In this document: positions 5,016 through 51,736 of the stretch, in pieces
How positions within the stretch are numbered: the first letter of the stretch is position 1
How the letters are laid out: every line of letters begins with the position of its first letter
Origin: Myxococcota bacterium
GTDB lineage: Bacteria; Myxococcota_A; UBA9160; UBA4427
Direction: 5' to 3'
Assembly: GCA_965250285.1 (NCBI GenBank)
Contig: OZ252299.1
Coordinates: forward strand, 1,408,001 to 1,472,000
Length of the DNA stretch: 64,000 nucleotides
Program-made: the position numbers and the translations under genes
Notes under the pieces: model-generated
What the model was told of the DNA's origin: nothing
The model's input: only the letters and a program-made list of their open reading frames with translations
Databases searched by the model: none

Positions 5016-5072
5016 TCCGAGAGACTATCTCGGGTCCTGCCTGGCCACGAGCGCCACGGGCGGCCGTCGCGG

Positions 5073-5942: not shown

Positions 5943-6032
5943 GCCAGTAGTCCTTCAGCTGATCCGTTCCGATTCTGCCGTTCCTGAGTCTCGTGCGAGT
6001 GTGGGCTCCGGGCCTCGCGAGTTGAGATCTGG

Positions 6033-6647
6033 ATGTGTCACCCCGTACACATCTCGAAGATCGAGAGATCTCGCGGCGATGTCTGCCGGCTAGAGTGGCG
6101 TAGCGTGTGGGGCAAGGGTGGGCATCAATTGGCTGGTTCGACAATCGGCAGGATTGCTGAGCGGCTCCCGTACTCCGACGGGTCCGGTCGCCGCAGGCTC
6201 ATCGCAGGAGCCTTCGTTCTGTCGACGCTCGTGGCCGTGGCTGGCGGCACCGGGTGCGAGGAGACGCTTGATGGGGTGCTCGAGTCGAAGTGCGAGAAGG
6301 CTGCGGTCAGGCTGGCGCGGAACGAGTGCCGAGCGCTCCATTCAGAGAGCGTGCCTACCGACCCAGCGATAGATGAGCGCAGGTCCGAGCTCCTCCGATG
6401 CACTCAACGCGCGTGCGCAGACGTTCCGTCCGTCTGCGACAAAGAGGGTGGGTCTTACAACCTCGAGGAGCTCTCTGCTCACTTGGCGTGCATGCGCGAG
6501 GTGATGCGGGGCTCGGGGCAGGACCCGAACCACGAGTGCCGGACGGACGAGCGGGTGATGGGGCCGTGCGTGGAAGAGTGTGTCAACGACGCGCTCAAGT
6601 CAGTCCAGCACGCGCGCCGCATCCTCGAATGCGAGCAAGGGCGCTAG
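6033..6647 (+). CDS. Cys-rich hypothetical lipoprotein (start uncertain, probably downstream)
   Basis: Hydrophobic stretch ending GTGC (lipobox-like), followed by many Cys. Confidence 0.55.
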   Translation: MCHPVHISKIERSRGDVCRLEWRSVWGKGGHQLAGSTIGRIAERLPYSDGSGRRRLIAGAFVLSTLVAVAGGTGCEETLDGVLESKCEKAAVRLARNECRALHSESVPTDPAIDERRSELLRCTQRACADVPSVCDKEGGSYNLEELSAHLACMREVMRGSGQDPNHECRTDERVMGPCVEECVNDALKSVQHARRILECEQGR

Positions 6648-6659
6648 GCGGGGGGGCGG

Positions 6660-7151
6660 GTGGGTCGGTATCAGCTAGCCGTATCGCTCATCGTCGTGGC
6701 TGTCGTCTCATGCGGAGAGGAAGCGCTAAGTCCGGAGCAAGAGTTATTCCTAGACATGCCCCGATTCGAGCGGATTCGCCATGTGTCCGCCCAGCCCAAC
6801 GACGTGCAGGTCGAGCTGTACCTCTTGACCGTCCAGCGGGTTCACCCGCCGGATGCAATCATGACGAAGCGGGTCGCTGCGACCGATGGGATCATCGTTC
6901 AGATCACGAACCGATGGCGCGACCCCGAGACGACCTTGCGTGACCGAATACACCTCTTGCGGCTGGTGGCCTACGTGCACCTGAATGGTGCATGGGAGCC
7001 GTCACGTGATGAGGCTTTTGCTCAGGAGATCACAGACTTCGTCGACGGGATCTGGGTGCCCTGGATTCGAGAGGACGTCGCGTGGCTAGAGCGGTCGCTA
7101 TACCGCGAGACGACGTCTCGTGCCGAACGGTCGGGTAAAGATCTTCAGTAG
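6660..7151 (+). CDS. Hypothetical lipoprotein
   Basis: Signal peptide with VVSC lipobox; tightly packed with neighbours. Confidence 0.6.
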   Translation: MGRYQLAVSLIVVAVVSCGEEALSPEQELFLDMPRFERIRHVSAQPNDVQVELYLLTVQRVHPPDAIMTKRVAATDGIIVQITNRWRDPETTLRDRIHLLRLVAYVHLNGAWEPSRDEAFAQEITDFVDGIWVPWIREDVAWLERSLYRETTSRAERSGKDLQ

Positions 7152-7198
7152 GGTGCCGTGGTCTCCCGCGCGTCGCGCATCGGTCTTCAGGGGGTCGC

Positions 7199-7516
7199 AT
7201 GCTTGTTTTCGATCGATACGAATGGGCAATCGCGACCGCGGCCGCAACGCTGCTGTGGTACGTGCTGCTTGCGCTTCAGACGAAGCGACTCGCCGACATC
7301 GGGTCGCCCCGGAGCGAAGATCTGAGCCTGACTGCGTTCTTTGTGGGACCGAACGGTTGGTTTCTGCGAACGCTCTTTTGGCTCTTTGGCCTTCAGTTCC
7401 TCCGAGAGCGGGATTGGGTGCTGGCGGCGATCAGCACATCCGCGCTGGCCACATACGTCGCGGCGGTGGGTCTGATCCTTGGGCCGGCTTTCAGGTGGGT
7501 CGTGATCGTCGACTAG
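7199..7516 (+). CDS. Small membrane protein, paralogue of 3260-3577
   Basis: End-to-end similarity to 3260-3577; GGGG RBS-like sequence upstream. Confidence 0.8.
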   Translation: MLVFDRYEWAIATAAATLLWYVLLALQTKRLADIGSPRSEDLSLTAFFVGPNGWFLRTLFWLFGLQFLRERDWVLAAISTSALATYVAAVGLILGPAFRWVVIVD

Positions 7517-7568
7517 GTCTCGGGGATGACGGCCCATGTGCCGGGAGGGGGCGCTCCGTGGTGCTCGC

Positions 7569-8093
7569 ATGGTGATTGTCTGGCTGGCGACTGCGATTGC
7601 TGCTGCGCTGCTACTGCTCGCGTGGTGGTGGTACACGTATGCAGAGACAGTCAAATGGCAGGACCTTCCCGGCCGAGTCGGAGGTTTCTCGACATACGCG
7701 GCGGAAGGCGGACGCCTCAGCATTAAGCACGTCGGGTCGGGTAGAACGATTGAGTTTGCGCTTTCGCAGGATGGCGACAAGCCCGTTCGCGCTGTCGAGT
7801 TCGCCCTTCCTGATATGGCTTGGTCGGCTGATTTCTTCGACGACTTCGTATCAGCCGCTGAAAGCGAAGGATTCGCATGCACTGTCGAGTTCGCACCTGC
7901 GCGCGACTCTGCCGTAAGGCGGTTTGCGAGTGTCATGTGCGTCGGCTCGCAAGACGACGTGGTTCAGCAATCAGCACAGCTACTCGCGACTATCGCCGGG
8001 TTCATCGGCGCCAGCCCTGGCGACCAAGCGAGGATTCGGTTCCGGGGCGCTATTCGCACATCGGTGATTGAGGAGGTCGGCGCCTCCCGCTGA
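7569..8093 (+). CDS. Hypothetical protein with N-terminal TM anchor (possible orphan immunity)
   Basis: Hydrophobic N-terminus then globular domain; co-oriented with the cassette string. Confidence 0.6.
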   Translation: MVIVWLATAIAAALLLLAWWWYTYAETVKWQDLPGRVGGFSTYAAEGGRLSIKHVGSGRTIEFALSQDGDKPVRAVEFALPDMAWSADFFDDFVSAAESEGFACTVEFAPARDSAVRRFASVMCVGSQDDVVQQSAQLLATIAGFIGASPGDQARIRFRGAIRTSVIEEVGASR

Positions 8094-8516
8094 GGAGCAA
8101 CAGCCGCTTAGGCTCTCCGGGCAACACCCTTCACCACAGCCCACCGCGAGAAATCGATTCTGAGGTCCAGAAAGGGCCACTGTGGGGCTGTTTTCGGGCC
8201 TATCTCTAGACGCTGGACCTACACCCCACGGACGGAGATAGGGTCGAGAAAGGTCGATTCTTGGGGTCGGGTGAGCGGTGTAGGTCGAGGCTAGAGGGGG
8301 AAACGGATTTCGGTTCGCATGATAAGACGCGATATACCGGAGGGTGAGGAAGCGCGTTTTTGGGGGTACCCCCACCCCCTTCGAAACTCCCGACAACAGC
8401 AGGTCGACCCCCGCCCCCCTCGCAATCTGAGCGAGCCTGCCCGCCCCACTGGCCATGTGAAGCCACGCCCGCCCCGGCACCACCACCCGGCTCTAGGACG
8501 CCTCATGGCCGATATC

Positions 8517-8542
8517 GTGTGCTAACCGTTCGGATGGCACAC
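8517..8542. promoter_or_regulatory. Candidate serine-recombinase crossover site (12-2-12 inverted repeat)
   Basis: GTGTGCTAACCG-TT-CGGATGGCACAC, arms 10/12 complementary, 16 bp upstream of the recombinase start. Confidence 0.6.
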
Positions 8543-8558
8543 AGTCGGGGAGGCGAAA

Positions 8559-9332
8559 GTGGCGAGACGAACCAAGCGAAAGGGCTCGGCCGAGACGCTC
8601 AGGCTCGTGGGCTACGCCCGGGTGTCGACTGACGAGCAGGCGAGTGAGGGCGTGAGCTTGAACGCCCAGGTTGAGCGCCTCAAAGCCTACGCCACAGCCC
8701 ACGGTCACGAGCTCGTGAAGGTCGTCCGCGACTCGGGCGTGTCGGGCAAGACGAGGGCAGAGGACCGGCCCGGCATGGGGCGTGTGCTGAGGGCGCTTGA
8801 GAAGGGCGAAGCAGACGGCGTCGTCGCGATCAAGCTCGACCGCTATTGCCGCGATACGCGCTGCACGCTGGACCTCGTCGAGCGGTGCGACCGTGAGGGC
8901 TGGCGGCTGATTAGCGTGGGCGAACACCTCGATACGGCGACGGCGGCTGGGCGTCTCGTGGTTACGGTCCTGGCAGCCTTGGCCCAGATGGAGCGAGAGC
9001 AGGTCGGTGAACGCACCACGTTCGCCCTCGAGGCCATCGCTCGCGAGGGCAGGGGACGAAGCCGCATCGTCCCGTTCGGCTGGCGCACGGCCTCAGGGAA
9101 GACGACGAACGCGGCCGGCGACCGACGCCCGCTCAAGCCCCACCAGCCCGAGCAGCGAGCACTGGCCCAAATCATCGAGCTGCGAGACGAGGGCAACGGC
9201 GCTCGGCGAATCGCCAAGGCGCTAACCGGGAAGAACCCGCGGTCGGGAGAGGCTTGGACCGTCGGCAGCGTGGCAGCCATCCTCAGGCGCCTGGACCGGT
9301 GGGCCGAGGCCGGGGTCGAGCCGCTCGCGTAG
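8559..9332 (+). CDS. Serine recombinase (resolvase catalytic domain + short recombinase-type DNA-binding domain)
   Basis: GYARVSTDEQ catalytic Ser, DSGVSG...RPG, KLDRYCR, LAALAQMERE, PFGW, IAKAL...W...SV..IL. Confidence 0.93.
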   Translation: MARRTKRKGSAETLRLVGYARVSTDEQASEGVSLNAQVERLKAYATAHGHELVKVVRDSGVSGKTRAEDRPGMGRVLRALEKGEADGVVAIKLDRYCRDTRCTLDLVERCDREGWRLISVGEHLDTATAAGRLVVTVLAALAQMEREQVGERTTFALEAIAREGRGRSRIVPFGWRTASGKTTNAAGDRRPLKPHQPEQRALAQIIELRDEGNGARRIAKALTGKNPRSGEAWTVGSVAAILRRLDRWAEAGVEPLA

Positions 9333-9466
9333 GGCAATCAGGTTATTTCAGTAGCGATGTAAATAGATTCGCGTGTGCGTGGTCAGGGGAGACATCAACG
9401 TCACGAAATAATGCACCTGTATTAATCCTCAACCGCCCCACACACCACGAGAGGTAGGGGAAAATA

Positions 9467-9496
9467 GTGGTGTCCGGTGGTGTCCCGTGGTCTCCG
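9467..9496. repeat. 3 x 10-bp tandem repeat GTGGT(G/C)TCC(G/C), iteron-like
   Basis: gtggtgtccg gtggtgtccc gtggtctccg, next to an AT-rich tract (~9340-9430). Confidence 0.7.
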
Positions 9497-9743
9497 AAAC
9501 TGCCTAAACGCGCTCTAGGCCGTCGAATTCAGCCTTCCTGAACCAGGGAGGGCCAGGGATGAGCGTCATCTGCCAGAGGGTGGGGTCGTGGTTGGCAGAT
9601 TCCCGCCGCGATCGCCGACGTGGTGGGGAGAGTGGTTTGGACGATGGTCGCTCTTCGAACCCGCCCTGGACGGACGGACGGACGGGACGCTTAGAAAAGC
9701 GTCCGCGTCCATCCGGCCAATCCGTAGGGAATCTCCTCGTCCG

Positions 9744-11333
9744 TCAGTCCCAATGGAGCTGGACAACCTCCGCCGCGCGTCCATCCGTGTCCACCGTCCG
9801 CGGGTCTTCGCTGACCGCCCACGCCCAGCCGTCGAACACCCGGGCGCCTCGCCACTGGCCAAGGTCTTCGATTGATCGGCGCCACTGGCCGCGCAGTCTC
9901 TCTCTCAGCTTCTTCTCGGAGTCGCCCGGCGTCGCTTCCCTCTCCGCCTCGAACGCCTCGCGCATGAACATGTCCTTGAGGGTCGCGACCTCGACGCCGT
10001 TGATCGGTACGTCCGGGTCCCATCCCCACTCGCGCACCTGGGCGATGAACCCGCTATCGGCAAGCGCGGTGGTGGGGACGTAGGTGACGCCGTCCCGGGC
10101 CTGGATTCGCTCCATCAAGTCGAGGAGCCTCTTCGCCCCCTTCGGCACCTTCGGTCGCTTCTTCTGGGAATGCTTGCGGGCTTCGGCGGCCTCGCTCTCG
10201 TCGAGGTATCGGACGATCGGCGCTTTGTTCTCCTTTCCGCTCGGCGCGATCCCCACGACCGCCAGCTTGGCTCGGTAGGCCCACCCGACACCATCAGGCC
10301 CGTCCTTCACCTTGTGGGCGGTGACGGTGAATAGGCGCTCTTCGAGCTCCTCCGCGTCGTCCCTCTCAACCTCGAACAGCCAGTCGAAGTCACATTCGAT
10401 CGTGCTCGAGCCCCGGTAAGTCTGGCCATCCTTCTTCGGGTGATGGACGCACGCAGCGGCCGGCGTGAAGCCGTCTGAGTTGCGATCGGCGACGCGCTCC
10501 GCGATGAGCCGGGCATTGGCTTCGACAGCACTGATGACATCGTCGCCGCTGTCTGACTGGCCGGGCGTGCACTTCTTCAGCGTGTCGAACACGAGCGCCC
10601 GAATAGGCATGGACAGATCGGGCACCACCTCCTCGGCGAGATACTCCGCGAAGTCGACCGCCTCGATGTCGTCGGCGAGGTTGACCGGACTAGAGATGCC
10701 CACGATCGCGTCATGGGGAAGACCAGCGTGCGCGTCTCGGATCGCGGCGATGCGCTTCTCGATGGCGCCCTGACCCTCTGCGGCGACGTAGACGGTCACT
10801 CCCTGCTTGGTCTTTCGGCCTCGAAACTCTTTGCCGACACCGACGTGGGCGGCGATATCGAGCATTTGTTGGGTCTTGAGCGAGCCGGTAGGCCCGAACA
10901 GAATTCCGACTGTGCCTTCATGGATCAGGTCTTCGATCACAGCGAGATGCTCCTTGTTTCCGTCCGCGTCACCGCTTAGAAAGTGCTTCCAGCGACGGCG
11001 CCTGGGCGGCGGTTCAGTGTTCGGCGATGAGTTGGCTGGTGTTAGGTCGGACGGTTCGTCAAACGTATCGACCTCGAAGCCGTCTTCCGTTTCGGTCACG
11101 CGATACGCGTCGCTCTCGGCCCGTCGGAGCGCACCCCAGATGTCCTTCGCCGAGCACCCGCCCGACGACGTGGGGTCGCCGAGGTCGTCGAACTCGAATT
11201 CGTGAGGGCAATGGTCCGGGTACTTGCAAGGGCACTCGGTTCGGTCTGTGTGGATCAGGTCGTGCATGTGCACTTCCTGCATCCGTGCTCGGAACGCTTC
11301 GAGCCTTTCTCCGTTCCGGTCAGAGGGCTTCAT
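9744..11333 (-). CDS. RepA-like (AAA_25, RecA-fold) replicative helicase of a mobile element
   Basis: Walker A GPTGSLKT, YVAAEG, Walker B LVFDT, VHHPKK...RGSS motifs. Confidence 0.88.
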   Translation of the reverse strand: MKPSDRNGERLEAFRARMQEVHMHDLIHTDRTECPCKYPDHCPHEFEFDDLGDPTSSGGCSAKDIWGALRRAESDAYRVTETEDGFEVDTFDEPSDLTPANSSPNTEPPPRRRRWKHFLSGDADGNKEHLAVIEDLIHEGTVGILFGPTGSLKTQQMLDIAAHVGVGKEFRGRKTKQGVTVYVAAEGQGAIEKRIAAIRDAHAGLPHDAIVGISSPVNLADDIEAVDFAEYLAEEVVPDLSMPIRALVFDTLKKCTPGQSDSGDDVISAVEANARLIAERVADRNSDGFTPAAACVHHPKKDGQTYRGSSTIECDFDWLFEVERDDAEELEERLFTVTAHKVKDGPDGVGWAYRAKLAVVGIAPSGKENKAPIVRYLDESEAAEARKHSQKKRPKVPKGAKRLLDLMERIQARDGVTYVPTTALADSGFIAQVREWGWDPDVPINGVEVATLKDMFMREAFEAEREATPGDSEKKLRERLRGQWRRSIEDLGQWRGARVFDGWAWAVSEDPRTVDTDGRAAEVVQLHWD

Positions 11334-16671: not shown

Positions 16672-17430
16672 ATGGACATGCTGAGCTGCAACCTCGAAAC
16701 CAACACCCGTGGAGCGTCGCCCCGCAAGGCGCTTCGAGTCATCCTGGCCACCGCGATCGCGATGATCGGCGCGACCACGGCCCAGGCGGCCACGATCTTC
16801 ACGGGCGATCAGACGACCGTGCTGGTCACCTCCTTCTTCGCCCTGACCGATGCGGGCTTCACCGTCGCGCCGCTCGGCTCTGCGGTGGTCGGCGACGACG
16901 TGGCGAAAGACGTCATCCTCGACGTGCCGCGCGTGCTGGCGGCCTTCCCGATCACGGGTGGCGGGATCAACACGATGACCGGCGACGTGATCGTCGAGCA
17001 CGACGGCAGCGGCCTCGAGCTCTCGACGGACACGCCGGCGAGCGTGGCGCTCGAGAACTTCGAGATCCTCCTCGACGCCACCGCAAGCGGCAACGTGCTG
17101 GGCACGCTGTTCGGCGACGTGACCATCAACGGCGGTGATCCGATCGTCGGCGCTGACATCTTCACGCTCACGGGCTGCGGCCTGGGCCTCGAGCCGGCGT
17201 GCATCGACAGCGACGCGAGCACGATCCTGAACGGCGTTCGCCTCGGTCTCACGTCGACCGCGGCGGGCGTTCTGAACGACACCTTCGACGTCGACGTGTT
17301 CGCCGAGGGCGATCAGGTCGGCATCGCGCGCGTCGACGTTCGCGTCGTGCCCGAGCCGGGCACGCTGCTCCTGACGTCGCTCGGTCTCGTTGGCCTGGCG
17401 TACGCCGGTCGCAGCCGCCGCGAGGCCTGA
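16672..17430 (+). CDS. PEP-CTERM sorting-domain protein
   Basis: Signal peptide (AQA) and C-terminal VPEPGTLLLTSLGLVGLAYAGRSRR. Confidence 0.92.
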   Translation: MDMLSCNLETNTRGASPRKALRVILATAIAMIGATTAQAATIFTGDQTTVLVTSFFALTDAGFTVAPLGSAVVGDDVAKDVILDVPRVLAAFPITGGGINTMTGDVIVEHDGSGLELSTDTPASVALENFEILLDATASGNVLGTLFGDVTINGGDPIVGADIFTLTGCGLGLEPACIDSDASTILNGVRLGLTSTAAGVLNDTFDVDVFAEGDQVGIARVDVRVVPEPGTLLLTSLGLVGLAYAGRSRREA

Positions 17431-41046: not shown

Positions 41047-41086
41047 AAGAAGAACAAGGGCCGCCCGGCTGCGGCCGGACGGCCCC
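41047..41086 (-). terminator. Rho-independent terminator of paralogue 1
   Basis: gggccgtccggc-cgca-gccgggcggccc hairpin + ttgttcttctt on - strand. Confidence 0.75.
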
Positions 41087-41114
41087 GTCACACGCCACGC
41101 GATCGCCTCAGGCG

Positions 41115-42134
41115 TCAGTCGCGGCGTCGCAGCGCCGAGTACCCCATGAAGGCCAAGCTGCCGCCGAGGGCACCGAGCGCGGCCAGCGGGGCGAGCGGCA
41201 CCTTGAATGCGCCGTCGGTCCAGCTCGTCGAGCCGACCAGGTTGCCGCGGATCGCGTCGCCGAAGATCAGGTTGCTGAAGATCTGGTAGTCGCCGATCGC
41301 GGACGAGGCGGGCACGGCAACGCGATTGCCGTCCGAGCTGAAGTGGAAGAGGGGGACGGGCAAGGGATTGATGAAGGCCTGCAGGCCGCTGCCCCCCGTG
41401 CCGCCCCGTTCGGCCGGCGTCCAGGCTTCTTCGAGGTAGCCGAGGACGCGTGTGCAGTAGGGATCCTCGCCCGGCAGACCGCCCTCGAGGAGCTGGTCTT
41501 CCTGGGTCGTGCACGAGCCGCCGTTCAGCGCCGGGTCGCACCAGGCGTCGCAGTACGTGCCCTGACCGGGCTCGACCACGCCCGGAAAGAACTCGCCACC
41601 GTAGGGATCGTTGTTCAGATTCGGGAACTGAACGGCGTAGCCATTCTTGAACACCGTCTCGTCGGGCGTGATGCTGAGTGCGACGACCGGGAGACCCGAG
41701 AGGACGGCCTCGTTGTACGTGTCGGACTGAATCAAGACGCGGCAGCCGGCGATCGGGTCGAACGTGCCGTTGGTGGCGGCATTCGACGTCGTCGCGCACG
41801 AGAACTCCTGGCTGAGCAGGCTGTGCGTGATCGAGACCTTGAGGACGGGCAGGTCGGTGCCGAAGTTGCCGCCGGGATCGGGATCGATCACGAGTTCGGA
41901 GTCGGGCCCCTCCCACGGCGACGTGCCGATCTCGCAGCCGGTCTTCGGGTCCTGGTCTCCTACCGGCGTGGGCGGCGTGACCGGGTAGAACACGGAGCAG
42001 TTGTTGAAGACGGCGCTCGGCGACGTGATCACCAGGATCGACCCGCCGTTGTTGTAGGTGCGATCGGCTGCCAGCGTCGGTCCCGCCGCGAGGCTGGCGG
42101 CGATCAAGAGCAGCAGTGAGAGTCGAAGCTTCAT
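41115..42134 (-). CDS. Secreted Cys-rich surface protein with VP-TM-RRR sorting tail, paralogue 1
   Basis: Signal peptide (TLA|AD); 8 Cys; C-terminus KVPLAPLAALGALGGSLAFMGYSALRRRD; AGGAG RBS. Confidence 0.9.
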   Translation of the reverse strand: MKLRLSLLLLIAASLAAGPTLAADRTYNNGGSILVITSPSAVFNNCSVFYPVTPPTPVGDQDPKTGCEIGTSPWEGPDSELVIDPDPGGNFGTDLPVLKVSITHSLLSQEFSCATTSNAATNGTFDPIAGCRVLIQSDTYNEAVLSGLPVVALSITPDETVFKNGYAVQFPNLNNDPYGGEFFPGVVEPGQGTYCDAWCDPALNGGSCTTQEDQLLEGGLPGEDPYCTRVLGYLEEAWTPAERGGTGGSGLQAFINPLPVPLFHFSSDGNRVAVPASSAIGDYQIFSNLIFGDAIRGNLVGSTSWTDGAFKVPLAPLAALGALGGSLAFMGYSALRRRD

Positions 42135-42262
42135 CGAGAGGGTCTCCTGTCTCGAGATTCGGTTGCTTGGTCTTCCCCGTTTCGCTCGTCGTGACAGCGC
42201 TTTGCGACACGGCCCGGGCGCGCTGAACCGGCGCGTCCGAACGCTGAACAGCTCACGTGAAG

Positions 42263-42278
42263 AGCAAGCGCCGTGCCA
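42263..42278 (-). promoter_or_regulatory. Sigma-54 (-24/-12) promoter of paralogue 1
   Basis: TGGCAC-GGCGC-TTGCT on - strand. Confidence 0.88.
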
Positions 42279-42454
42279 CGCGTGCGAGGTGAAGCGCACC
42301 GATTTAACGAGGCGGGGCGGGGACTTGGGGGCACCCAGGCGTTGGGCGATGTTTCAATCGCGAGGCATTTTGTCACAGCGGATGTGCGGGAGACCTCCCG
42401 CAGCAGCCCGCTGGCGGCGCCAAACACACGAATTTTCAAGAGTTTCTCAGACTC

Positions 42455-42486
42455 GGGGCAATCTGCTCCATGGGGCAGGATGCTCC
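42455..42486. promoter_or_regulatory. Two tandem palindromic boxes GGGGCA-N3-TGCTCC (candidate enhancer)
   Basis: ggggcaatctgctcc at 42455 and ggggcaggatgctcc at 42472; related boxes upstream of paralogues 2 and 3. Confidence 0.6.
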
Positions 42487-42596
42487 GCGGTGTCGGTGCC
42501 CCACCCGGATCGCCGCGGCCACCTCGAGTGGGCTGTTGGCGCGGCCCTGAGTCGATCGGTTCGAAGCGTGCTCAGGCGCGAGCGTCGCCCGGGCCC

Positions 42597-42634
42597 AAAG
42601 AGAAAGGGCCGCCCAGCGCATGCTGGACGGCCCT
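42597..42634 (-). terminator. Rho-independent terminator of paralogue 2
   Basis: agggccgtccagc-atgc-gctgggcggccct + ttctcttt. Confidence 0.8.
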
Positions 42635-42661
42635 GTCTTGGAGCTTGTTGCGTCTCTGGAT

Positions 42662-43681
42662 CTACTCGCGGCGTCGCAGCACCGAGAAGCCCATGAACGC
42701 GAGGCTGCCGCCGAGGGCACCGAAGGCCGCGAGCGGGGCCAGCGGCACCTTGAAGGCGCCGTCGGTCCAGACCGTGGTCCCGATCAGGTTGCCGCGGATG
42801 GCGTCGCCGAAGATCAGGTTGCTGAAGATCTGGTAGTCGCCAATGGCGCTCGAAGCCGGCACCGCGATGCGGTTGCCGTCCGAGCTGAAGTGCCAGACCG
42901 GGACAGGCAGCGGGTTGATGAAGGCCTGAAGGCCATCACCACCGGTGCCGCCCCGCTCAGCCGGGGTCCACGCCTCTTCGAGGTAGCCGAGGACGCGCGT
43001 GCAGTAGGGCAGCTCGCCGGGCAGGCCACCTTCGAGCAGCTGGTCTTCCTGGGCCGTGCACGAGCCACCGTTGGCGGCCGGGTCGCACCAGGCGTCGCAG
43101 AACGTGCCCTGGCCGGGCTCGATGACGCCGGGGAAGAACTCACCGCCGTAGGGGTCGTTGTTCAGGTTCGGGAACTGAACCGCGTAGCCGTTCTTGAACA
43201 CCGAGCTGTCGGGCGTGATGCTGGTCGCGGCGACCGGCAGGCCGGTGAGCACGGCGTCGTTGAAGGTGTCGGCCTCGATGAACACGCGGCAGCCGGGGAC
43301 CGGATCGAAGGTGCCGTTGGTGGCCGCATTCGAGGTCGTGGCGCAGGAGAACTCCTGCGTCAGGTTGCTGTTCGTGACCGAGGTCGTGATGATCGGCAGA
43401 TCGGTGCCGAAGTTGCCGCCCGGATCGGGGTCGACGACGAGCTGCGAGCCCGAGCCTTCCCAGGGCGAGATGCCGATTTCACAGCCGGTCTTCGGATCCT
43501 GCTCGCCGACCGGGGTGGGCGGCGTGACGGGGTAGAAGACCGAGCAGTTGCCGAACTGGGCGCTCGGCGAAGTGATGACCAGAACCTGGCCGCCGTTGGT
43601 GTAGTCACGATTCGCGGCGAAGGCCGGCATCGCGATCAGGCTGCTCAGGGCGACGAGCAGCAGCGCATTACGAAACTTCAT
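42662..43681 (-). CDS. Secreted Cys-rich surface protein with VP-TM-RRR sorting tail, paralogue 2
   Basis: Signal peptide (AFA|AN); near-identical to paralogues 1 and 3. Confidence 0.9.
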   Translation of the reverse strand: MKFRNALLLVALSSLIAMPAFAANRDYTNGGQVLVITSPSAQFGNCSVFYPVTPPTPVGEQDPKTGCEIGISPWEGSGSQLVVDPDPGGNFGTDLPIITTSVTNSNLTQEFSCATTSNAATNGTFDPVPGCRVFIEADTFNDAVLTGLPVAATSITPDSSVFKNGYAVQFPNLNNDPYGGEFFPGVIEPGQGTFCDAWCDPAANGGSCTAQEDQLLEGGLPGELPYCTRVLGYLEEAWTPAERGGTGGDGLQAFINPLPVPVWHFSSDGNRIAVPASSAIGDYQIFSNLIFGDAIRGNLIGTTVWTDGAFKVPLAPLAAFGALGGSLAFMGFSVLRRRE

Positions 43682-43790
43682 TGAGTGTTTCTTCTCCATC
43701 GGTTTCCATCATCGGGCAACGCCCGCTCTGCCGAGCCGACGCGTGCAACGCACTCGCAGGGTCGCGAGGTGTCGCGATGGCCTCGCTAGG

Positions 43791-43806
43791 AGCAAGACGC
43801 GTGCCA
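43791..43806 (-). promoter_or_regulatory. Sigma-54 promoter of paralogue 2
   Basis: TGGCAC-GCGTC-TTGCT on - strand. Confidence 0.88.
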
Positions 43807-44031
43807 CATGTTGCGATTGTGTCGCGCCCTGAAAACGCAATGAAATCGGCTATTTGGGTCCTTCTGTGACAAGTTCGGGGCGATGCCTCTACGGAGCATA
43901 ATGCCCCGGATTCACCGTTCGCATCCCATCTGCTCGTACGCAGGCGGGGAGAAAATCCAGCAAAAACAAGCACTTGGCGATTTCGGGTGAATTCGCCCCA
44001 GTGCGGCATTCTGCGCCGTGCCCGGTGGCCC

Positions 44032-44069
44032 AAACAGAGAGGGCCGCCCAGCGCATGCTGGACGGCCCT
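44032..44069 (-). terminator. Rho-independent terminator of paralogue 3
   Basis: Hairpin identical to 42605-42634, followed by ctctgttt. Confidence 0.75.
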
Positions 44070-44096
44070 GTCTTGGAGCTTGTTGCGTCTCTGGAT

Positions 44097-45116
44097 CTAC
44101 TCGCGGCGTCGCAGCACCGAGTAGCCCATGAACGCGAGGCTGCCGCCAAGGGCACCGAAGGCCGCGAGCGGGGCCAGCGGCACCTTGAAGGCGCCGTCGG
44201 TCCAGACCGTGGTCCCGGTCAGGTTGCCGCGGATGGCGTCGCCGAAGATCAGGTTGCTGAAGATCTGGTAGTCGCCGATGGCAGTCGAAGCCGGCACCGC
44301 GATGCGGTTGCCGTCCGAGCTGAAGTGCCAGACCGGGACGGGCAGCGGGTTGATGAAGGCCTGGAGGCCATCACCACCGGTGCCGCCGCGCTCGGCCGGC
44401 TGAAACTGCTCCTCGAGGTAGCCGAGGACGCGCGTGCAGTAGGGCAGCTCGCCGGGGAGGCCACCTTCGAGCAGCTGGTCTTCCTGGGCCGTGCACGAGC
44501 CACCGTTGGCCGCCGGGTCGCACCAGGCATCACAGAAGACGCCCTGACCCTGCTCGACGACGCCCGGGAAGAACTCACCGCCGTAGGGGTCGTTGTTCAG
44601 GTTCGGGAACTGAACGGCGTAGCCATCCTTGAAGACCGTGTCGTCGGGCGTGATGCTGGTCGCGGCGACCGGCAGGCCCGTGAGGACGGCGTCATTGAAG
44701 GTATCGGCCTCGATGAACACGCGGCAGCCGGGGACCGGATCGAAGGTGCCGTTGGTGGCCGCATTCGAGGTCGTGGCGCAGGAGAACTCCTGCGTCAGAT
44801 TGCTCTGCGTGACCGAGGTCGTGATGATCGGCAGATCGGTGCCGAAGCTGCCGCCCGGATCGGGGTCGACGACGAGCTGTGAGCCCGAGCCTTCCCAGGG
44901 CGAGATGCCGACTTCGCAGCCGCTCTTCGGATCCTGCGCACCGACCGGGGTGGGCGGCGTGACCGGGTAGAAGACCGAGCAGTTGTTGAACTGGGCACTC
45001 GGCGACGTGATGATGAGGATCTGGCCCCCATTGGTGTAGTTGCGATTCGCGGCAAAGGCCGGCATCGCGATCAGGCTGCTCATGACCAGGAGCAGCAGCG
45101 TGAATCGAAGCTTCAT
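44097..45116 (-). CDS. Secreted Cys-rich surface protein with VP-TM-RRR sorting tail, paralogue 3
   Basis: AAGGA RBS; signal peptide; near-identical to paralogues 1 and 2. Confidence 0.9.
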   Translation of the reverse strand: MKLRFTLLLLVMSSLIAMPAFAANRNYTNGGQILIITSPSAQFNNCSVFYPVTPPTPVGAQDPKSGCEVGISPWEGSGSQLVVDPDPGGSFGTDLPIITTSVTQSNLTQEFSCATTSNAATNGTFDPVPGCRVFIEADTFNDAVLTGLPVAATSITPDDTVFKDGYAVQFPNLNNDPYGGEFFPGVVEQGQGVFCDAWCDPAANGGSCTAQEDQLLEGGLPGELPYCTRVLGYLEEQFQPAERGGTGGDGLQAFINPLPVPVWHFSSDGNRIAVPASTAIGDYQIFSNLIFGDAIRGNLTGTTVWTDGAFKVPLAPLAAFGALGGSLAFMGYSVLRRRE

Positions 45117-45246
45117 GGCGCGTTCCTTCTCCTGTGGTTCTGGTTCGATGTGGACCCGAATCGGTCCGGTGTCTGGCGGACCCATCCGGGTCCCTGTCCG
45201 ACGCCACCACGCTGACCCGGCGGGTGGCTCCGTGGTGACACAGAAT

Positions 45247-45262
45247 AGCAAGGGCTGTGCCA
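45247..45262 (-). promoter_or_regulatory. Sigma-54 promoter of paralogue 3
   Basis: TGGCAC-AGCCC-TTGCT on - strand. Confidence 0.88.
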
Positions 45263-45659
45263 GTCGGGCAGGCGCTATGCGACGCTAAAACATAAGCATT
45301 TTCAAGCACTTGGATTCTTGTGGGGAATCTGCTGCAGAAACCGAAGCCCGGCGCAAACTGCCGCGGTCCGTCCGACGTGCAGCGTTCCGCTGCAGGGGCG
45401 CCTCAGAAACCTGAACAAGTTCGATGACTTGCGCAGTAATCGGCTCAATTCACAAGGACGGTGCAGAATCCGCCGCTCGGCGAATCCCGCCCCGGCAATG
45501 CGCGCGCACACTGCGCCGTGTCGAGCGGTCTCGAGGCATGGCCGGACCCCGGCGCAGCACGTGGTGCGCAGCGCGGGTGGGCATGAGTCGGGCGGGAGGC
45601 GCGCTTCGCCATCGCGCGCAGGGCCGACCGGCCGGCGCGACGACCTCGCGCGGCGAGGA

Positions 45660-48317
45660 TCAGAAGAAGTCGGGCAGGGTGGTGATGCCGACGCGGATGC
45701 CCCAGGTGCGCGGGGGCAGGTAGAAGCCCAGTACCGGTGCGCCAATGCCGGCGGGCGACACGAACAGGAAGTTGATCACGTCCTCGTCCGTCACGTTGTT
45801 CACGAAGCCGCGCACGATGTACACGCCGTCCTCGCTCGTCCAGTCGATCGACAGGTCGAGCTTGGCAAACGGATCCTGGCTGAAGCGTTCCTCGTTGAAC
45901 ACACGGTAGTAGGTGCGGCTCTGCGTCTGCATCTGCGCGCGGGGCGAGAAGGTGCCCCAGCGCTCGAGATCCCAGTCGTACTGAACGCCGAACGAGCCCG
46001 CGAAGCGGGGCGCCTTCTCGAGCGTGTTGCCCGTCAGGTCTTCGGGCGGTCCGCCCGCGCCGTCGGTGATCGGGTTGGCGGGATCGAAGAAGGTGGGATC
46101 CCGGAGGAACAGGTTCCGCACCTTGGCGTCGAGGAAGTTGAAGTGCCCGTTGAAGGTCAGGCCATCGACCGGCATCGCCACGACCTCGAGCTCGACGCCA
46201 CGACTCAGCGCCGAGCCATTGGTCTCGCACTCGAACTGCACGCCGATGATCTGGCACACCTGGAACGGGTCGTAGTCGGTCCAGAAGAGCGTCAGGTTCG
46301 CCGAGATTCGGCCATCCCAGAGCGCGTTCTTCGAGGTGAGCTCGTACTGGGTCACCTCTTCGGCTTCGTAGATGTCCGGGGTGTTCTGGATCGGATTGTC
46401 GGGGTTCGCGCCCAGGGTGAAACCGCCGGGCTTGTACCCCGTCGTGAAGCCGAAGGCGAGCGAGTTCGAGTCGGTGATCTCCCAGTCGGCCCCCGCCTCG
46501 TAGGTCCAGGCGCTGAAGGTCGTACTGCCGGTCTGATCGAACGAGCCCGTAATGTCGTTGATGGCGATGTAGTTCTGCTGGTTCGCGGCGCTGATCTCAA
46601 ACAGCTCCTGGTAGTAGTCGCCGCAGGGGGTGTCGTTCGGGATCGACGGGTCGCTCGGACGCTCCCCGGGCGGGGCATTCGTGTATCGGACGTTTCGCTG
46701 GTCGGCTTCCTTCTGCTCGTTGGAGTAGCGGACGCCGCCCTTGACCTTGAGGTTGTCGAGCACGCGGTAACCGAGGTTGCCGTACCAGGCGAGGCTGCGG
46801 TTGTGCAGGCTCTGGTCGGTGAACGCATCCGTCAGCGCCAAATCCTGCTGAGTGTCGAGGCACTGCGTGCCGTCGACGTTCTCGTCGAAGAAGAAGCCGC
46901 CGGTCTTGAAATCGAAGCGTTCGACGTCGGGTCGTTCGATGAAGGCCTCGACCGAGCCCTGATCGGCGACCAGCGTCGAGCCGAAGTACGAGTGCGGCGT
47001 ATTCGTGCCGTCGACGTCGAGGCGGTTCTCGCGGTCGGTTCGCACGTAGCCGCCGATCACGCCGATGCGCATGTCGCTGAACCAGCTGCTGTTCTGGAAG
47101 AACGGCAGATCCCAGTTGAAGTGCGCGACCGCGCTGCCCTGTCGATTGTCCTGAAAGCCGATGTCGTCGGCGTAGGTCACGAACGGGTCGTCGCTCTTGC
47201 AGAAACCGGGGTTCTCATTGGTGCACCCGGGGATCAGGAGCCGCTGAAGCTCCTCGGGAATGTTCGGGTTCAGCAGTGCGCCGGTGCGATCGAGGCGCTC
47301 GCCGAGCAGGTGTCGCGACGGGCCGATGCCCTTCTGGTAGTTGTAGCCGCCGATCAGTCTGAGCTCGATGCTCTCGTCGGCGAAGAGGCTGCGCGTCTGG
47401 AAGCGCGTGATCAGATCGTCCGCGTCCGAAGCGTCGAAGTTACGCACACCGTACGTGCGGTTCTCCTGATAGCCGTCCCGGTTCTCGTAGGTGACGGTCG
47501 AGCGGGTCATCAGCAGACCATCGGGCAGGATCGGCACGTTCAGGGCGCCGCGCAGCAGGATCTGGTCGAACGAGCCGTACTGGACGTCGCCCATGAAATC
47601 GAGATCCTCGGTCGGGCGCTGGGACGAGACCGCGATGCGGCCGCCGTTCGTGTTGTAGCCGCCGTTGATGCCCTGGGGACCGCGATAGACGCGCACGTTC
47701 TCGACGTCGTAGATGCGCACGGCGGCGGCCGTCGGACGTCCCTGGTGGATGCCGTCGACTTCGAAGCCGACGCCCGGGGTGCCCACCGTCGTGAGGTTGG
47801 CCGCGCCGACACCGCGCAGGGTGATGACCGGCTGCGAACCAAAGTTGCCGACGTGGAGAGAGGGTGTGTTGAGAGAGAGCGACGCGACCTCTTCGATGCC
47901 CATCGTGTCGAGATCGCTCTGGTCGAACTCGGTGATCGCGTCTGGAATGGCCTGTGCGGTGGCCTCCGAGGCCTTGCCGGTCACGACCAGCTCTTCGACG
48001 CCGTAGCCGAGCGAAGTCGGGTCGTCGAAGTTGTAGTCGTCCTCTTCGTCGCTGACTTCTTCGTCTTCTTCGTCGTCGTCGCTGCCGCCTTCTTCGGCGC
48101 GGTCGAACTCGGCGAAGAGATCGTCCTCGTCGTCTTCCTGCGCGGCGCTCGTCGTCGGCACGAGTAGGCCGATCGGAACGATCAGGAGCAGCAACGCGAG
48201 CCACTTCATCCAGTGTGCAACGCGCCGGCCCTGCGGCGTCGCGGCCGGGTCGGGAAGCACCGCGGCTGCAATCCGCTCCGGTTCGTTGATCTGCGTCGGC
48301 ATCGTCGAATCAGTCAT
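45660..48317 (-). CDS. TonB-dependent receptor (start may be 48209)
   Basis: TonB box VEELVVTG, plug motif ITLRGVG...VDG...DVENVRVYRGPQG, GYKPGGF, NNVTDE, PPRTWG, terminal Phe. Confidence 0.93.
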   Translation of the reverse strand: MTDSTMPTQINEPERIAAAVLPDPAATPQGRRVAHWMKWLALLLLIVPIGLLVPTTSAAQEDDEDDLFAEFDRAEEGGSDDDEEDEEVSDEEDDYNFDDPTSLGYGVEELVVTGKASEATAQAIPDAITEFDQSDLDTMGIEEVASLSLNTPSLHVGNFGSQPVITLRGVGAANLTTVGTPGVGFEVDGIHQGRPTAAAVRIYDVENVRVYRGPQGINGGYNTNGGRIAVSSQRPTEDLDFMGDVQYGSFDQILLRGALNVPILPDGLLMTRSTVTYENRDGYQENRTYGVRNFDASDADDLITRFQTRSLFADESIELRLIGGYNYQKGIGPSRHLLGERLDRTGALLNPNIPEELQRLLIPGCTNENPGFCKSDDPFVTYADDIGFQDNRQGSAVAHFNWDLPFFQNSSWFSDMRIGVIGGYVRTDRENRLDVDGTNTPHSYFGSTLVADQGSVEAFIERPDVERFDFKTGGFFFDENVDGTQCLDTQQDLALTDAFTDQSLHNRSLAWYGNLGYRVLDNLKVKGGVRYSNEQKEADQRNVRYTNAPPGERPSDPSIPNDTPCGDYYQELFEISAANQQNYIAINDITGSFDQTGSTTFSAWTYEAGADWEITDSNSLAFGFTTGYKPGGFTLGANPDNPIQNTPDIYEAEEVTQYELTSKNALWDGRISANLTLFWTDYDPFQVCQIIGVQFECETNGSALSRGVELEVVAMPVDGLTFNGHFNFLDAKVRNLFLRDPTFFDPANPITDGAGGPPEDLTGNTLEKAPRFAGSFGVQYDWDLERWGTFSPRAQMQTQSRTYYRVFNEERFSQDPFAKLDLSIDWTSEDGVYIVRGFVNNVTDEDVINFLFVSPAGIGAPVLGFYLPPRTWGIRVGITTLPDFF

Positions 48318-49320
48318 AGTTGGGGCTCAGGCGAATGCCGATCAGGATGCTGATGTTCAGGCCGCGATCGTAGGAGTAGTCCATTCGTTCGTCCGGCCCG
48401 GGCTGGACCGGCGCAAAGCCATTGAGCAACGTCGCAGTGGCGGACGTGTCGGACAGGGCGAAGCCGACGTAGGCGTCGGTGTAGAAGCCGAACTTGACCC
48501 ACTCGTTCTCGCCGATATCGACGTCGAGACCGATCCCCGGTGCGATGCCGTGGCTGACGAGATCTTGCGTCTCGAACAGCGGCGACCAGAGGCCGTTCGC
48601 CTGGTCTTGGGTGGGTCCGTCGGCGAAGTCGTAGACGGCACCGATCCCGGCCTTCGATCGGAAGTAGTTCACCGAGGTGTTGATGCGAATGTCGTAGAGG
48701 TCGATCGGCAGCAGGAACTCGGCACCAATCCCCACGAAGAGGGTGGTCTTGGGGTCGACGGTCTGTTCGACCCGCAAGAACTTGTCCTCGCTGTTCAGGG
48801 CGCCGAGGAAGTCCTGGGCACCGAGCCAGTTGACCCGCGGTACGCCATCGCTCGCGAGCGCGCTGTTGTCCTGACGCTGCAGCACGAGCGACGCATTGAT
48901 GAACAGGCGGGGCTTTGTCGGAACGTCGAACTCGGGCATGCGCAGTCGGCCGCCGAAGTTGAGCGCGCCGCCCGCGTAGATACCGTCCCACTCCCCCGAA
49001 GAGTCGACGCACGGGAAGAGGCCCGGAGGAGGCGGGTCAGGGCAGGTCGCAAAGGGGCTGTTGAGCGCACGCGTGCGGCCACTCAGGCTCGAGCTGGCCT
49101 TGTCCCACGTGATGCCCATGCCGATGATCGCGCTGGGTTCGTAGTTTCTCCAATCGCCCCAGTCCGACGGCTCTCGCCGCTTGCGTCGCGGCTTCGGCTG
49201 GCTCTCGCTCTCCGCATCCGCGCTGTCGCCGGCCGGTTCGTCTTGGGCCCACACAGGCAGCGCGATCGCGAGCACGAGGGTCGCGATCAGCAGGCGCAAA
49301 GCCGACTGCCAGGGGTTCAT
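48310..49320 (-). CDS. Secreted protein, probable outer-membrane beta-barrel
   Basis: Signal peptide (VWA|QD); alternating-hydrophobic strands (GIGAEFLLP, GIGLDVDIG, ILIGIRL); stop overlaps receptor start. Confidence 0.7.
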   Translation of the reverse strand: MNPWQSALRLLIATLVLAIALPVWAQDEPAGDSADAESESQPKPRRKRREPSDWGDWRNYEPSAIIGMGITWDKASSSLSGRTRALNSPFATCPDPPPPGLFPCVDSSGEWDGIYAGGALNFGGRLRMPEFDVPTKPRLFINASLVLQRQDNSALASDGVPRVNWLGAQDFLGALNSEDKFLRVEQTVDPKTTLFVGIGAEFLLPIDLYDIRINTSVNYFRSKAGIGAVYDFADGPTQDQANGLWSPLFETQDLVSHGIAPGIGLDVDIGENEWVKFGFYTDAYVGFALSDTSATATLLNGFAPVQPGPDERMDYSYDRGLNISILIGIRLSPNYD

Positions 49321-50044
49321 CGGGCGCTCTCCGGGAGATCGGGAGGGGACGTGGGCTGCGCACGTTAGCGGCATCGAGTCTCGCACGCACCGAGCCACGG
49401 CGAACCGGACGCCGAGGCGAGCAGCTGGGGCCTGCTCCCCATGGAAGTGACACGACCGGCCGGGCGCTGACCGGGTCCATGGTCGGGTCGCGATTCTGTC
49501 TGCTGGCGGCGAGGCCGGAGGGCGTGAGAGCGCGTGCTCTCGGCGATTCATGTCCCGCGCATCCCGGGATCGTGATCGCCTGCTCTGGACGGTCGGCTTT
49601 GCCGCAAGCCAAACGCCCGGGCTCGAGTGGCTGCAGGGACTCCACTCGACGTTCGGGCGCCCGCTAGCTTTAACCCATCGAGTCAGGTGCTGTCGAGCAC
49701 CACGTGTGGATTTCGTCGCAGTTCGATGTCGTTGGCCATGGTTCGAACGCTCGTTGGTCATCCCGGCGCGACGCGTACCCCGAGGCGGGCGCGTCGGCTC
49801 GCTCCGGCGGGGTGACCTCGAGTCGTGCGATGTGGTCGCTGAACACGGGACGCCGCGTCCCTCCATCGGCGACGCGCAGCATCGACGGTCATGGGCGGCT
49901 GCCTGCGCTTGTGCGTGGAGCTTCACCCCCAGCTCGGTCCGGCATGGTTCGCGACGCGGTGCGGCAGACCAACGGAAGCGTACGTGGGGGCCGTCCCCGC
50001 ACGTGCGACGTCCACCGTGCGCGGCCCGTGTGTATGCTGCGCGC

Positions 50045-51736
50045 ATGACGAACCGCCGCGGTCAGCTCTCGTTGGCGATGCTCGTCCTGTCGAGTGCCAC
50101 GATGATCGCGATGTCGGGGGCGCGGCTCGTCGCCGATGCTTCGTTCTGGGGGGACGAGGCCGCCATCGCGTACAACGTGATCTCGATGCGCCCCAGCGAG
50201 CTCATGGGCGCGCTCGACACCGGCCATCAATTTCCGCGTCTCTACCTGGGGCTGATCAACCAGCTGCGCTTGGCCGTGGGCTACGAGACGATCGTGATGC
50301 GGACGCTGCCGTTCGTGTTCTTCGTCGCCGGGGTCGTGCTCTGGCACCGACTGCTGTGGCTGCGCTTTCGGTCGAACCCGGGGCTCATCGCCCTCGGGTG
50401 CCTGCTCACCCTCGTGCCGGGCGATTGGTTCGCCTATGGCGCGATGTTCAAGCAGTACAGCCTCGACGTGCTCGTCGCACTGCTGCCCTTCCTGATCGCC
50501 GATTCGACCCTCGATCGCATGTGGCGTGACGGCGAGGGGCGCGGGCGCATCGCCTTGCAGGTGCTGCCCTGTCTCGTCTCGCTCAGCTACGGCATTGCGC
50601 TCCTCGGGCGCTGGGTCGGTTACGGGCTCGGATCGGCCCGCCGCCAGGGCGTACCGCCGACCGGGACCTGGGTGGGGCTCGCCGCGGGGCTCTCGGGTGC
50701 CATGGCGCTCAGCTATGGCATCGATCTGCGCCACGCCTTCGAGAACCGCATCGCCTTCGACTTCTGGGGCGCGCGCGGTTGCCTCGCCAGCGGCGATCCG
50801 GTCGCCGACGTCACGCTGATCGGCCGTTGGCTCGTCGACTGGTTCGTCGGCAAGAACCCGTTCGGCGGTCGCCTGCCCGTGCTCCCCGCAGTCGCGACCG
50901 GCTTGCTCGTCGCGGCGGGCGCCGGGGCCCTGCGCGTGATCGGCGAGCGGGTGCGACCGGGGGTTGGACCGGGCCCCGACCTCGAGGACGCCCGCGCCAC
51001 GTCGACGCCCCCTGGCGCTGTGGCGACGCCCCCTGGCGCTGCAGCGACGCCCCCTGGTGTCGCGTCGACGCTCCCTGGTGTCGCGGAGCGCGCCGCGTGG
51101 GGCACCCGATCGCTCTCCGCGGCCGCGACCGTGGGGGGCCTCTTCGCGGCGGGCCTGCTCCTTTCCTACCCGCTCTGCGCCAACCGACTCACGCTGTTTG
51201 CCTTCTTCTCTCTACTGCTGGTGACGCTCGAGGGGGTCGCGTGGGCGGGGGAGAGCCTCGCGCGGCGCGGTCGCGGCGCGTGGGCCGAGGCGATCCCGCT
51301 GATGATCGCGCTCGCAGTGGGCCCGAGCGCGGCGGCCACGGTCGAGGCGCTCCTGACGCAGGACGCGCCCGAGAATCTGCGTCCGCTGTTGGCGCAGATG
51401 GCGCGCGCGCCGCAACGAACGGTGGTCGTGGGCTACTGCAGCGCGCCGCAGGCATTGACGCTGCCCGAGTGGATCGAGCGCGACGACATCGTCTATGCCC
51501 ACGATCGCATGGCGGAGGGTCGTTTCCCCATCCCGGTCGACCAGGACGTCTGGCTCGTGACGACCGGCGGCGGTGAAGTCTGTCGCGCCTGGACGCAGCG
51601 CGTTCGCGAGCGGGCGACCCGTTTCGACGCGGTGACGCCAGCGGGCCGGGGCGCGATGCTGTTCAGCGTGCGTGTCGACGCTGCGGCCTCGAGCGGGGGC
51701 GCAACGCCGCAACCGGGCGTCGCGCGGCGCGACTAG
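50045..51736 (+). CDS. Multi-TM GT-C-like (PMT/ArnT-type) glycosyltransferase
   Basis: SFWGDEA after TM1, 'FP..Y', 'R..PF', KQYSLD motifs; many TM helices. Confidence 0.7.
   Translation: MTNRRGQLSLAMLVLSSATMIAMSGARLVADASFWGDEAAIAYNVISMRPSELMGALDTGHQFPRLYLGLINQLRLAVGYETIVMRTLPFVFFVAGVVLWHRLLWLRFRSNPGLIALGCLLTLVPGDWFAYGAMFKQYSLDVLVALLPFLIADSTLDRMWRDGEGRGRIALQVLPCLVSLSYGIALLGRWVGYGLGSARRQGVPPTGTWVGLAAGLSGAMALSYGIDLRHAFENRIAFDFWGARGCLASGDPVADVTLIGRWLVDWFVGKNPFGGRLPVLPAVATGLLVAAGAGALRVIGERVRPGVGPGPDLEDARATSTPPGAVATPPGAAATPPGVASTLPGVAERAAWGTRSLSAAATVGGLFAAGLLLSYPLCANRLTLFAFFSLLLVTLEGVAWAGESLARRGRGAWAEAIPLMIALAVGPSAAATVEALLTQDAPENLRPLLAQMARAPQRTVVVGYCSAPQALTLPEWIERDDIVYAHDRMAEGRFPIPVDQDVWLVTTGGGEVCRAWTQRVRERATRFDAVTPAGRGAMLFSVRVDAAASSGGATPQPGVARRD
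51002..51085 (+). repeat. 4 x 21-bp in-frame VNTR ((S/A)TPPG(A/V)(V/A))
   Basis: tcgacgccccctggcgctgtg / gcgacgccccctggcgctgca / gcgacgccccctggtgtcgcg / tcgacgctccctggtgtcgcg. Confidence 0.9.

Follow-up and report, generated by a model that had tools for sequence, protein, structure and literature searches.

A sigma-54-driven family of secreted proteins with an exosortase-type tail, linked to a TonB receptor and a small outer-membrane barrel: a candidate surface-coat system in a Myxococcota-labelled genome

Introduction

Tails of the IPTL-CTERM type are paired with the exosortase XrtH. Here we describe a locus with tails of comparable layout, namely three secreted proteins of 339 amino acids (aa) encoded next to a TonB-dependent receptor and a small predicted outer-membrane barrel, in a 64,000-nucleotide stretch of a genome labelled Myxococcota bacterium (GenBank assembly GCA_965250285.1, contig OZ252299.1, forward-strand positions 1,408,001 to 1,472,000). 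This whole stretch is called the window, and positions given without a prefix are counted from its first letter.

According to the accessible text of two reports, exosortase-type enzymes leave their substrates surface-anchored, and MYXO-CTERM proteins employ a type II secretion system (T2SS) (PMC11980579, bioRxiv 2023.06.07.544157). A proven surface-layer (S-layer) protein, mela_00855 of Methylomirabilis lanthanidiphila, is described in the available part of its report as having about 310 aa, a signal peptide, an IPTL-CTERM tail and glycosyltransferase neighbours (PMC8671808). For Myxococcus xanthus, excerpts of a further paper present Oar as a TonB-dependent transporter required for protein export in the Oar-PopC pair, PopC being a secreted protease (PMC6434023). 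How exosortase substrates cross the outer membrane and become attached is not established in the papers cited. No description of the module presented below was found among the titles and abstract openings that literature searches returned.

Results

The genome of the window (G000) is a single contig of 6.25 Mb with 68.6% GC, for which 5158 genes were called. The genes that form the core of the locus are the following:

41115..42134, minus strand: copy A, secreted 339-aa protein with signal peptide, eight cysteines and a tail of VPLAPL, transmembrane (TM) segment and RRR
42662..43681, minus strand: copy B, secreted 339-aa protein (alternative start at 43699)
44097..45116, minus strand: copy C, secreted 339-aa protein
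45660..48302, minus strand: TonB-dependent transporter of a module-specific clade (39-67% to its orthologues, 24-30% to paralogues in the same genome)
48310..49320, minus strand: outer-membrane beta-barrel, predicted to have eight strands, from an unannotated family

Open reading frames, cysteine positions (46, 67, 113, 131, 195, 199, 208 and 227 in every copy) and tails agree with a preliminary description of this DNA, which had reported three near-identical secreted proteins of about 339 aa with eight conserved cysteines; the pairwise identities among copies A, B and C are 82, 81 and 92%. A scan of the window proteins gave no Pfam or NCBIfam match for the copies, which is in line with its remark that they belong to no recognised family. 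In contigs from three other short-read runs (from a single study, possibly the source), the unique spacers have a depth like that of the flanks. An assembly artefact is therefore an unlikely explanation of the triplication; no short-read contig reaches across all three copies.

The locus was compared with 225 genomes of its class, 67 of which belong to the family of the window. In the class searches the best 4-12 candidates per genome were scored and one search missed a known orthologue in genome G074, so that absences from these searches are not demonstrated. Full-length matches from outside were limited to three proteins, P0004 (65-67%), P0005 (39-40%) and P0006 (33-36%), in which the tail is nearly unchanged and the body has drifted. 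A class search with P0002 alone returned only the genome of the window (1 of 225), and scanning genome and metagenome contigs for patterns taken from the window alignment confirmed nothing. Matches to the representatives P0007-P0010 were discarded as unrelated long repeat proteins. A profile search of the class gave three weak matches outside G000, and the one in G074 sits behind an orthologous TonB receptor (39%, 553 bits; the best receptor paralogue in G000 reaches 239 bits) and a barrel homologue.

An alignment of the receptor, used as query, retrieved four loci from genomes and 16 from metagenomes, of which 14 reach orthologue level among the metagenome loci; L050, whose length and match coordinates equal those of L043, and the distant receptors L059 and L060 were left out. 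Wherever a gene follows a close receptor orthologue outside the window (7 of 7 loci: L042-L044, L046, L047, L052, L055), it encodes a VPALPL-tailed secreted protein or a protein of the same family that the contig end truncates, here called the passenger. The barrel was present in all 12 loci with enough upstream sequence (two pairs probably overlap), divergently oriented in the other family and co-directional in G000 and G113, and tandem passenger copies recur in L047, L055 and G130. The synteny with receptor and barrel that the preliminary description had put up for examination in relatives is hence preserved. By record title, two relatives of the same order are Myxococcota, and L041 and L042 are Spirochaetaceae and Spirochaetales, though both are placed in the window's family and order.

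The proteins downstream of receptor orthologues define a passenger family of 74 database proteins, present in 12 of the 225 class genomes and with at least 12 members each in G130 and G070. Its members combine a core of about 190 aa with optional Cys-rich inserts, and a credible Pfam match (IPTL-CTERM) was obtained for 1 of 77. In a profile-profile comparison with hhalign, the window proteins aligned with this family at 99.1% over 233 collinear columns, a score to which signal peptide and tail contribute much. The bodies alone scored 26.3, compared with 13.5±1.9 in block-shuffled controls, none of which (0 of 60) reached 26.3; in global mode, hhalign did not align the bodies sensibly. The body of P0005 bridges to the family with 15.3 bits on a hidden Markov model (HMM) of the family body, and Cys195 and Cys227 coincide with, or lie next to, the two cysteines that are invariant in the family. 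These sequence comparisons suggest that the window proteins are likely divergent members of a larger unannotated family, a homology that is not proven. Sequence searches of the PDB with the passenger and barrel families gave nothing significant, and atlas feature matches all stayed below 0.9 and serve as leads only. A further distant passenger member of G000 (L112:4416-5135, C1:2610415-2611134) matches the body HMM with E 6e-4 and has a VPVF-type tail.

With a signal peptide at the N-terminus and a motif-TM-basic C-terminus, the copies have the layout of PEP-CTERM proteins. The tail consensus is VPALPL or VPLAPL followed by LG..L.[YF][LM]G. The PEP-CTERM models TIGR02595/PF07589 matched none of the three window tails, whereas the control, a canonical PEP-CTERM protein at 16672-17430 (without a sigma-54 site by the pattern used), passed the cut-off with 24.9 bits; on an HMM of the genome's own PEP tails the window tails scored 3-5 bits versus a median of 47. 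Likewise, none of the three matched TIGR04174/PF18203 (IPTL-CTERM), and 12 of 77 family members matched TIGR04174 at E<=0.1 (best E 0.00083). An HMM built from 86 family tails ranked the three window tails first among all G000 genes (38-44 bits), followed by other VP tails of the genome (at most 28 bits), several of them with sub-threshold IPTL-CTERM matches, and with PEP-CTERM tails at no more than 15 bits. The proposal of a new sorting-signal variant thus holds in so far as the tail is not PEP-CTERM, but it is not unique: it is the VPALPL tail that the family shares, at the margin of IPTL-CTERM. Nor is it VPLPA-CTERM/XrtD, since it reads VPLAP and the best XrtD score is 229.5 versus 400. In total, G000 encodes about 50 PEP-CTERM tails and 26 other (IPTL-like) VP-type tails.

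As noted before, there is no exosortase in the window; the genome scan found six homologues elsewhere in G000, one of them over the XrtT cut-off. A short XrtH-like gene lies at C1:1538041, about 82 kb from the copies, and scores 80.3 bits against the XrtH cut-off of 86. Its Cys, Arg and His stand in the expected motifs, and its best NCBIfam score is for archaeosortase B (96.8 versus 150). Homologues passing the XrtH cut-off occur in 60 of the 225 class genomes. In G073 the XrtH-like gene adjoins, and is divergent from, the orthologue of the module's regulator; in G106 it is 16 kb from the barrel, and in G081 it adjoins the sigma-54-driven, VP-tailed passenger of a paralogous module of receptor, barrel and GT-C-like gene. 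G000 also has a T2SS secretin over cut-off. Directly after the XrtH-like gene of G000 an unannotated membrane protein is encoded (L010:10658-11212, C1:1538657-1539211), a candidate sortase partner, and similarly placed membrane proteins occur in G130, G073, G070, G074 and G132.

Each copy has the marks of its own transcription unit, as had been proposed, with a consensus sigma-54 site upstream and a terminator-like structure, a GC hairpin followed by a short T-rich run, downstream:

42263..42278, minus strand: sigma-54 -24/-12 consensus site of copy A
43791..43806, minus strand: sigma-54 site of copy B
45247..45262, minus strand: sigma-54 site of copy C
42454..42470, minus strand: candidate activator-binding (enhancer) site of copy A, scoring 14.0 bits with a matrix derived from relatives alone
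44002..44018, minus strand: candidate enhancer of copy B, 14.3 bits
45459..45475, plus strand: candidate enhancer of copy C, in inverted orientation, 18.2 bits
41058..41086, minus strand: terminator-like hairpin 3' of copy A
42605..42634, minus strand: terminator-like hairpin 3' of copy B
44040..44069, minus strand: terminator-like hairpin 3' of copy C

A consensus sigma-54 site within 400 nt was found for 38 of the 5158 called genes, including all three copies. Sigma-54-type sites are present in 8 of 9 promoter intervals of the module loci and, by a relaxed pattern with no background rate behind the count, in 16 of 23 dispersed family members. Upstream of the promoters a 17-nt imperfect palindrome of the TGGTG-N7-CACCA type recurs. 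This motif was chosen by eye from the training loci; on the resulting matrix of 11 non-window sites, no more than 1 of 800 random upstream regions scored higher than the three window promoters. A kinase and a sigma-54 regulator flank the module in relatives, and in G000 this pair lies about 1.06 Mb from the window module, with a regulator 57-64% identical to its orthologues. The pair remained below the PrsK/PrsR cut-offs (268.6-274.1 versus 502.6; 62.9-67.3 versus 300).

AlphaFold predicted an 8-stranded beta-barrel with a pLDDT of 91.7 for a family member modelled on a 77-sequence alignment, and the barrel fold of the window proteins is that of this relative's model, carried over by profile homology. 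The structural matches of the model were OmpA (Z 9.7, rmsd 3.3, 134 aligned), OmpW (8.7), OprF (8.6), YceI-type proteins (7.6-8.0), TbpB (7.9, rmsd 4.0, 129 aligned), hemophilin (7.8, rmsd 3.0, 110 aligned) and NHBA (7.5), where Z below 8 may reflect a common arrangement only; Foldseek returned no match for this model at E<=0.001. The passenger strands have mixed faces (KD of the best face at most 1.5, polar fraction 0.23-0.47), unlike the strands of the module's own barrel, which served as control and whose lipid faces are clean (KD 1.1-2.9, with polar fractions of 0-0.23 and strand limits set by eye). Given this lack of a clean lipid face, the predicted passenger domain is likely a soluble 8-stranded beta-barrel.

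The TonB receptor recognised earlier was verified by its matches to PF00593 (92.7 bits) and PF07715. The gene described as barrel-like does encode eight amphipathic strands, though without a family match: none of 11 members of the barrel family matched any Pfam family, and no DUF560/Slam or TPR domain was found in them. Among 220 genomes not used for training, the five best barrel matches (G106, G070, G130, G132 and G082) are all carriers of the passenger family, with a nominal P of 5e-7 within two families that is too strong, since kin are not independent. In relatives the module is flanked by TPR-bearing membrane proteins, which we take to be TMTC-like, and by PMT_2 and GT87 matches. In the window, the gene divergent from the barrel is:

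50045..51736, plus strand: GT-C-like membrane protein (putative label, probably peripheral)

It matched no Pfam or NCBIfam family, and its label derives solely from a count of eight hydrophobic windows and from a DE pair that comes after helix 1. Within it, a 21-nt tandem repeat (50994-51077) encodes a Pro/Ala/Thr loop. A lipoprotein-like domain, two examples of which were scanned without a Pfam match, stands beside the barrel or fused to a GT87-like protein in relatives (L041:1004-1894, L042:7904-8629, L051:2718-3461); it was not seen in the window. Elsewhere in the window, a stretch of low codon score (4179-11282) with a resolvase-like gene (8607-9332) is possibly an integrated element.

A second module of receptor, barrel and GT-C-like gene is encoded in G000 at C1:480179-493317 (L129). 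Its passenger is a different, sigma-54-driven, VP-tailed protein, 27.5% identical to that of G081, and its body gave no match to the family of the copies.

Discussion

We consider it very probable that the three copies belong, in one way or another, to the envelope proteins sorted by an exosortase-type system. For their role we favour, with a confidence that is evenly balanced, sigma-54-driven and exosortase-clipped soluble barrels that form an abundant, variable surface coat with the help of receptor and barrel. The passenger would be exported by Sec, cut by the XrtH-like exosortase at its VP-x-L/membrane/Arg tail and re-anchored, would cross the outer membrane via the T2SS present in G000 or via the receptor, and would be displayed in large amounts as a sequence-variable coat of the cell surface, a display that receptor and outer-membrane barrel likely serve. 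An NtrC-like regulator would activate transcription at the palindromic enhancer, and the flanking GT-C/TPR enzymes may O-glycosylate the Thr/Ser-rich body.

A number of observations speak against this proposal. The AlphaFold model of the window protein itself was uninformative (pLDDT 40.5, best fold-search Z 3.7), and the body-only hhalign probability of 9-11% is weak by that measure. The window tails match no NCBIfam model and reach 16-21 bits on the genome's own VP-tail HMM, within the range of PEP-CTERM tails, which makes the assignment to a sortase indirect. G000 possesses five other exosortases, and XrtH-like genes are found in 127 of the 225 class genomes and in 59 of the 67 in the window's family; because they are so widespread, their co-occurrence says little and their position is the better evidence. 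No family gene stands immediately downstream of the more distant receptors found in G130, G082, G070 and G011. Codon bias of the copies (40th-73rd percentile) gives no sign of high expression, though this marker is uninformative. The module's kinase orthologue in G000 (L111:769-2034, C1:388768-390033) carries an in-frame TAG after codon 86, also seen in contigs from two other runs, and with this stop the copies' promoters may be inactive, or a shortened kinase may drive them. The N-X-S/T sequons pointed out in the preliminary description exist, but their numbers (2, 3 and 5 versus 2.3-2.5 expected, none in two relatives) are at chance level, and N-glycosylation of the copies was therefore dropped. 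Similarly, other GT-C/TPR genes do flank the module, whereas the GT-C-like gene of the window had no orthologue by BLAST in the three relative loci tested. Overall, as far as sequence can tell, the proteins fall into no characterised family, their tail is not an ordinary one and their synteny is not lost, as the preliminary description had supposed.

The predicted barrel fold of the passenger keeps a different role in play, in which the copies are TbpB/hemophilin-like, tail-anchored co-receptors that pass a scarce ligand to the adjacent TonB receptor for import. This main rival, which we judge unlikely, fits the layout of an 8-stranded barrel next to a TonB receptor as described in the accessible text on TbpB and hemophilin (PMC8406197), the passenger gene standing straight after the receptor in all close loci, and the structural matches to TbpB, hemophilin and NHBA. 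However, these Z scores tie with those of YceI-type proteins, stay below OmpA and may be due to the common arrangement; the partner barrel is 8-stranded and lacks a DUF560/Slam match, the passenger family is poor in His (0.9%), its paralogues are dispersed away from the receptor in numbers of at least 12 in some genomes, the paralogous receptor-barrel module has an unrelated passenger, and the neighbours are glycosylation and sorting genes. That the top structural matches are OmpA, OmpW and OprF would also suit a passenger body that is itself an integral outer-membrane barrel, the tail being removed prior to insertion; we hold this to be very improbable in view of the mixed strand faces, which differ from the clean lipid faces of the module's barrel.

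Distinctly unlikely, in our view, is that the copies are ordinary IPTL-CTERM-type exosortase passengers in an island of envelope genes, with receptor and barrel as functionally untied hitch-hikers. The many PEP-CTERM and other VP-type tails of G000, weaker or distant barrel homologues in 87 of the 225 genomes and the loss of gene order in G130, G082 and G070 point in that direction, but the adjacency of receptor and passenger has been kept across two families despite a passenger body diverged almost beyond recognition, the layout recurs in the paralogous module, and barrel subfamily and passenger family co-occur in five further genera, even if kin are not independent. Within the favoured coat model, the receptor might by analogy with Oar for PopC be a TonB-energised export channel for exosortase-processed coat proteins, with the small barrel anchoring or nucleating them. 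We regard this extension as improbable; if true, it would constitute a new surface-display route for C-terminally sorted proteins, used by at least two paralogous modules with different passengers.

In a little-known lineage with Myxococcota-labelled records, the locus points to a candidate major surface protein. Moreover, the compact conserved set of passenger, TonB receptor, small barrel, XrtH-like sortase, GT-C/TPR enzymes and sigma-54 regulator with its enhancer makes the question of how exosortase substrates cross the outer membrane and become attached testable. The passenger family, the barrel family, the tail subtype and the enhancer are unannotated here.

Compared with known systems, the present one works like PEP-CTERM/IPTL-CTERM and passes neither family's model, and we view it as an exosortase-type sorting variant. 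It shares with IPTL-CTERM/XrtH (TIGR04174, PF18203/TIGR04177) a motif-TM-basic tail starting from [VI]P-x-L and an XrtH-like enzyme, encoded in G000 and near such modules in relatives, but the window tails lack a model match and are tied to a module of receptor, barrel and sigma-54 control. With PEP-CTERM/XrtA and PrsK-PrsR, as presented in the accessible text of PMC1569441, it has in common single-gene units, long upstream regions with a sigma-54 site and a 17-nt activator motif, a kinase/NtrC-like pair and glycosylation genes nearby; in contrast, the window tails have no PEP motif, the regulators fall well short of the PrsR/PrsK cut-offs, the activator motif is a palindrome of the TGGTG-N7-CACCA type, and TonB is absent from the main text of that paper. 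The S-layer protein mela_00855 resembles the copies, by its description, in size, signal peptide, IPTL-CTERM-type tail and glycosyltransferase neighbours, while the available part of its report does not mention TonB and states that predicted glycosylation was not found (PMC8671808). Oar, as portrayed in the excerpts of PMC6434023, offers a precedent for the export role that the module's receptor might play. Finally, the cargo of type XI secretion (TbpB/hemophilin with TonB receptor and Slam) is an 8-stranded barrel, as is predicted for the passenger, and its gene likewise accompanies those of a TonB receptor and an outer-membrane barrel, but it uses N-terminal lipidation or free secretion in the portion of PMC8406197 available, where the copies carry a putative C-terminal sorting tail, have no Pfam TbpB match and are accompanied by a partner barrel that is not DUF560.

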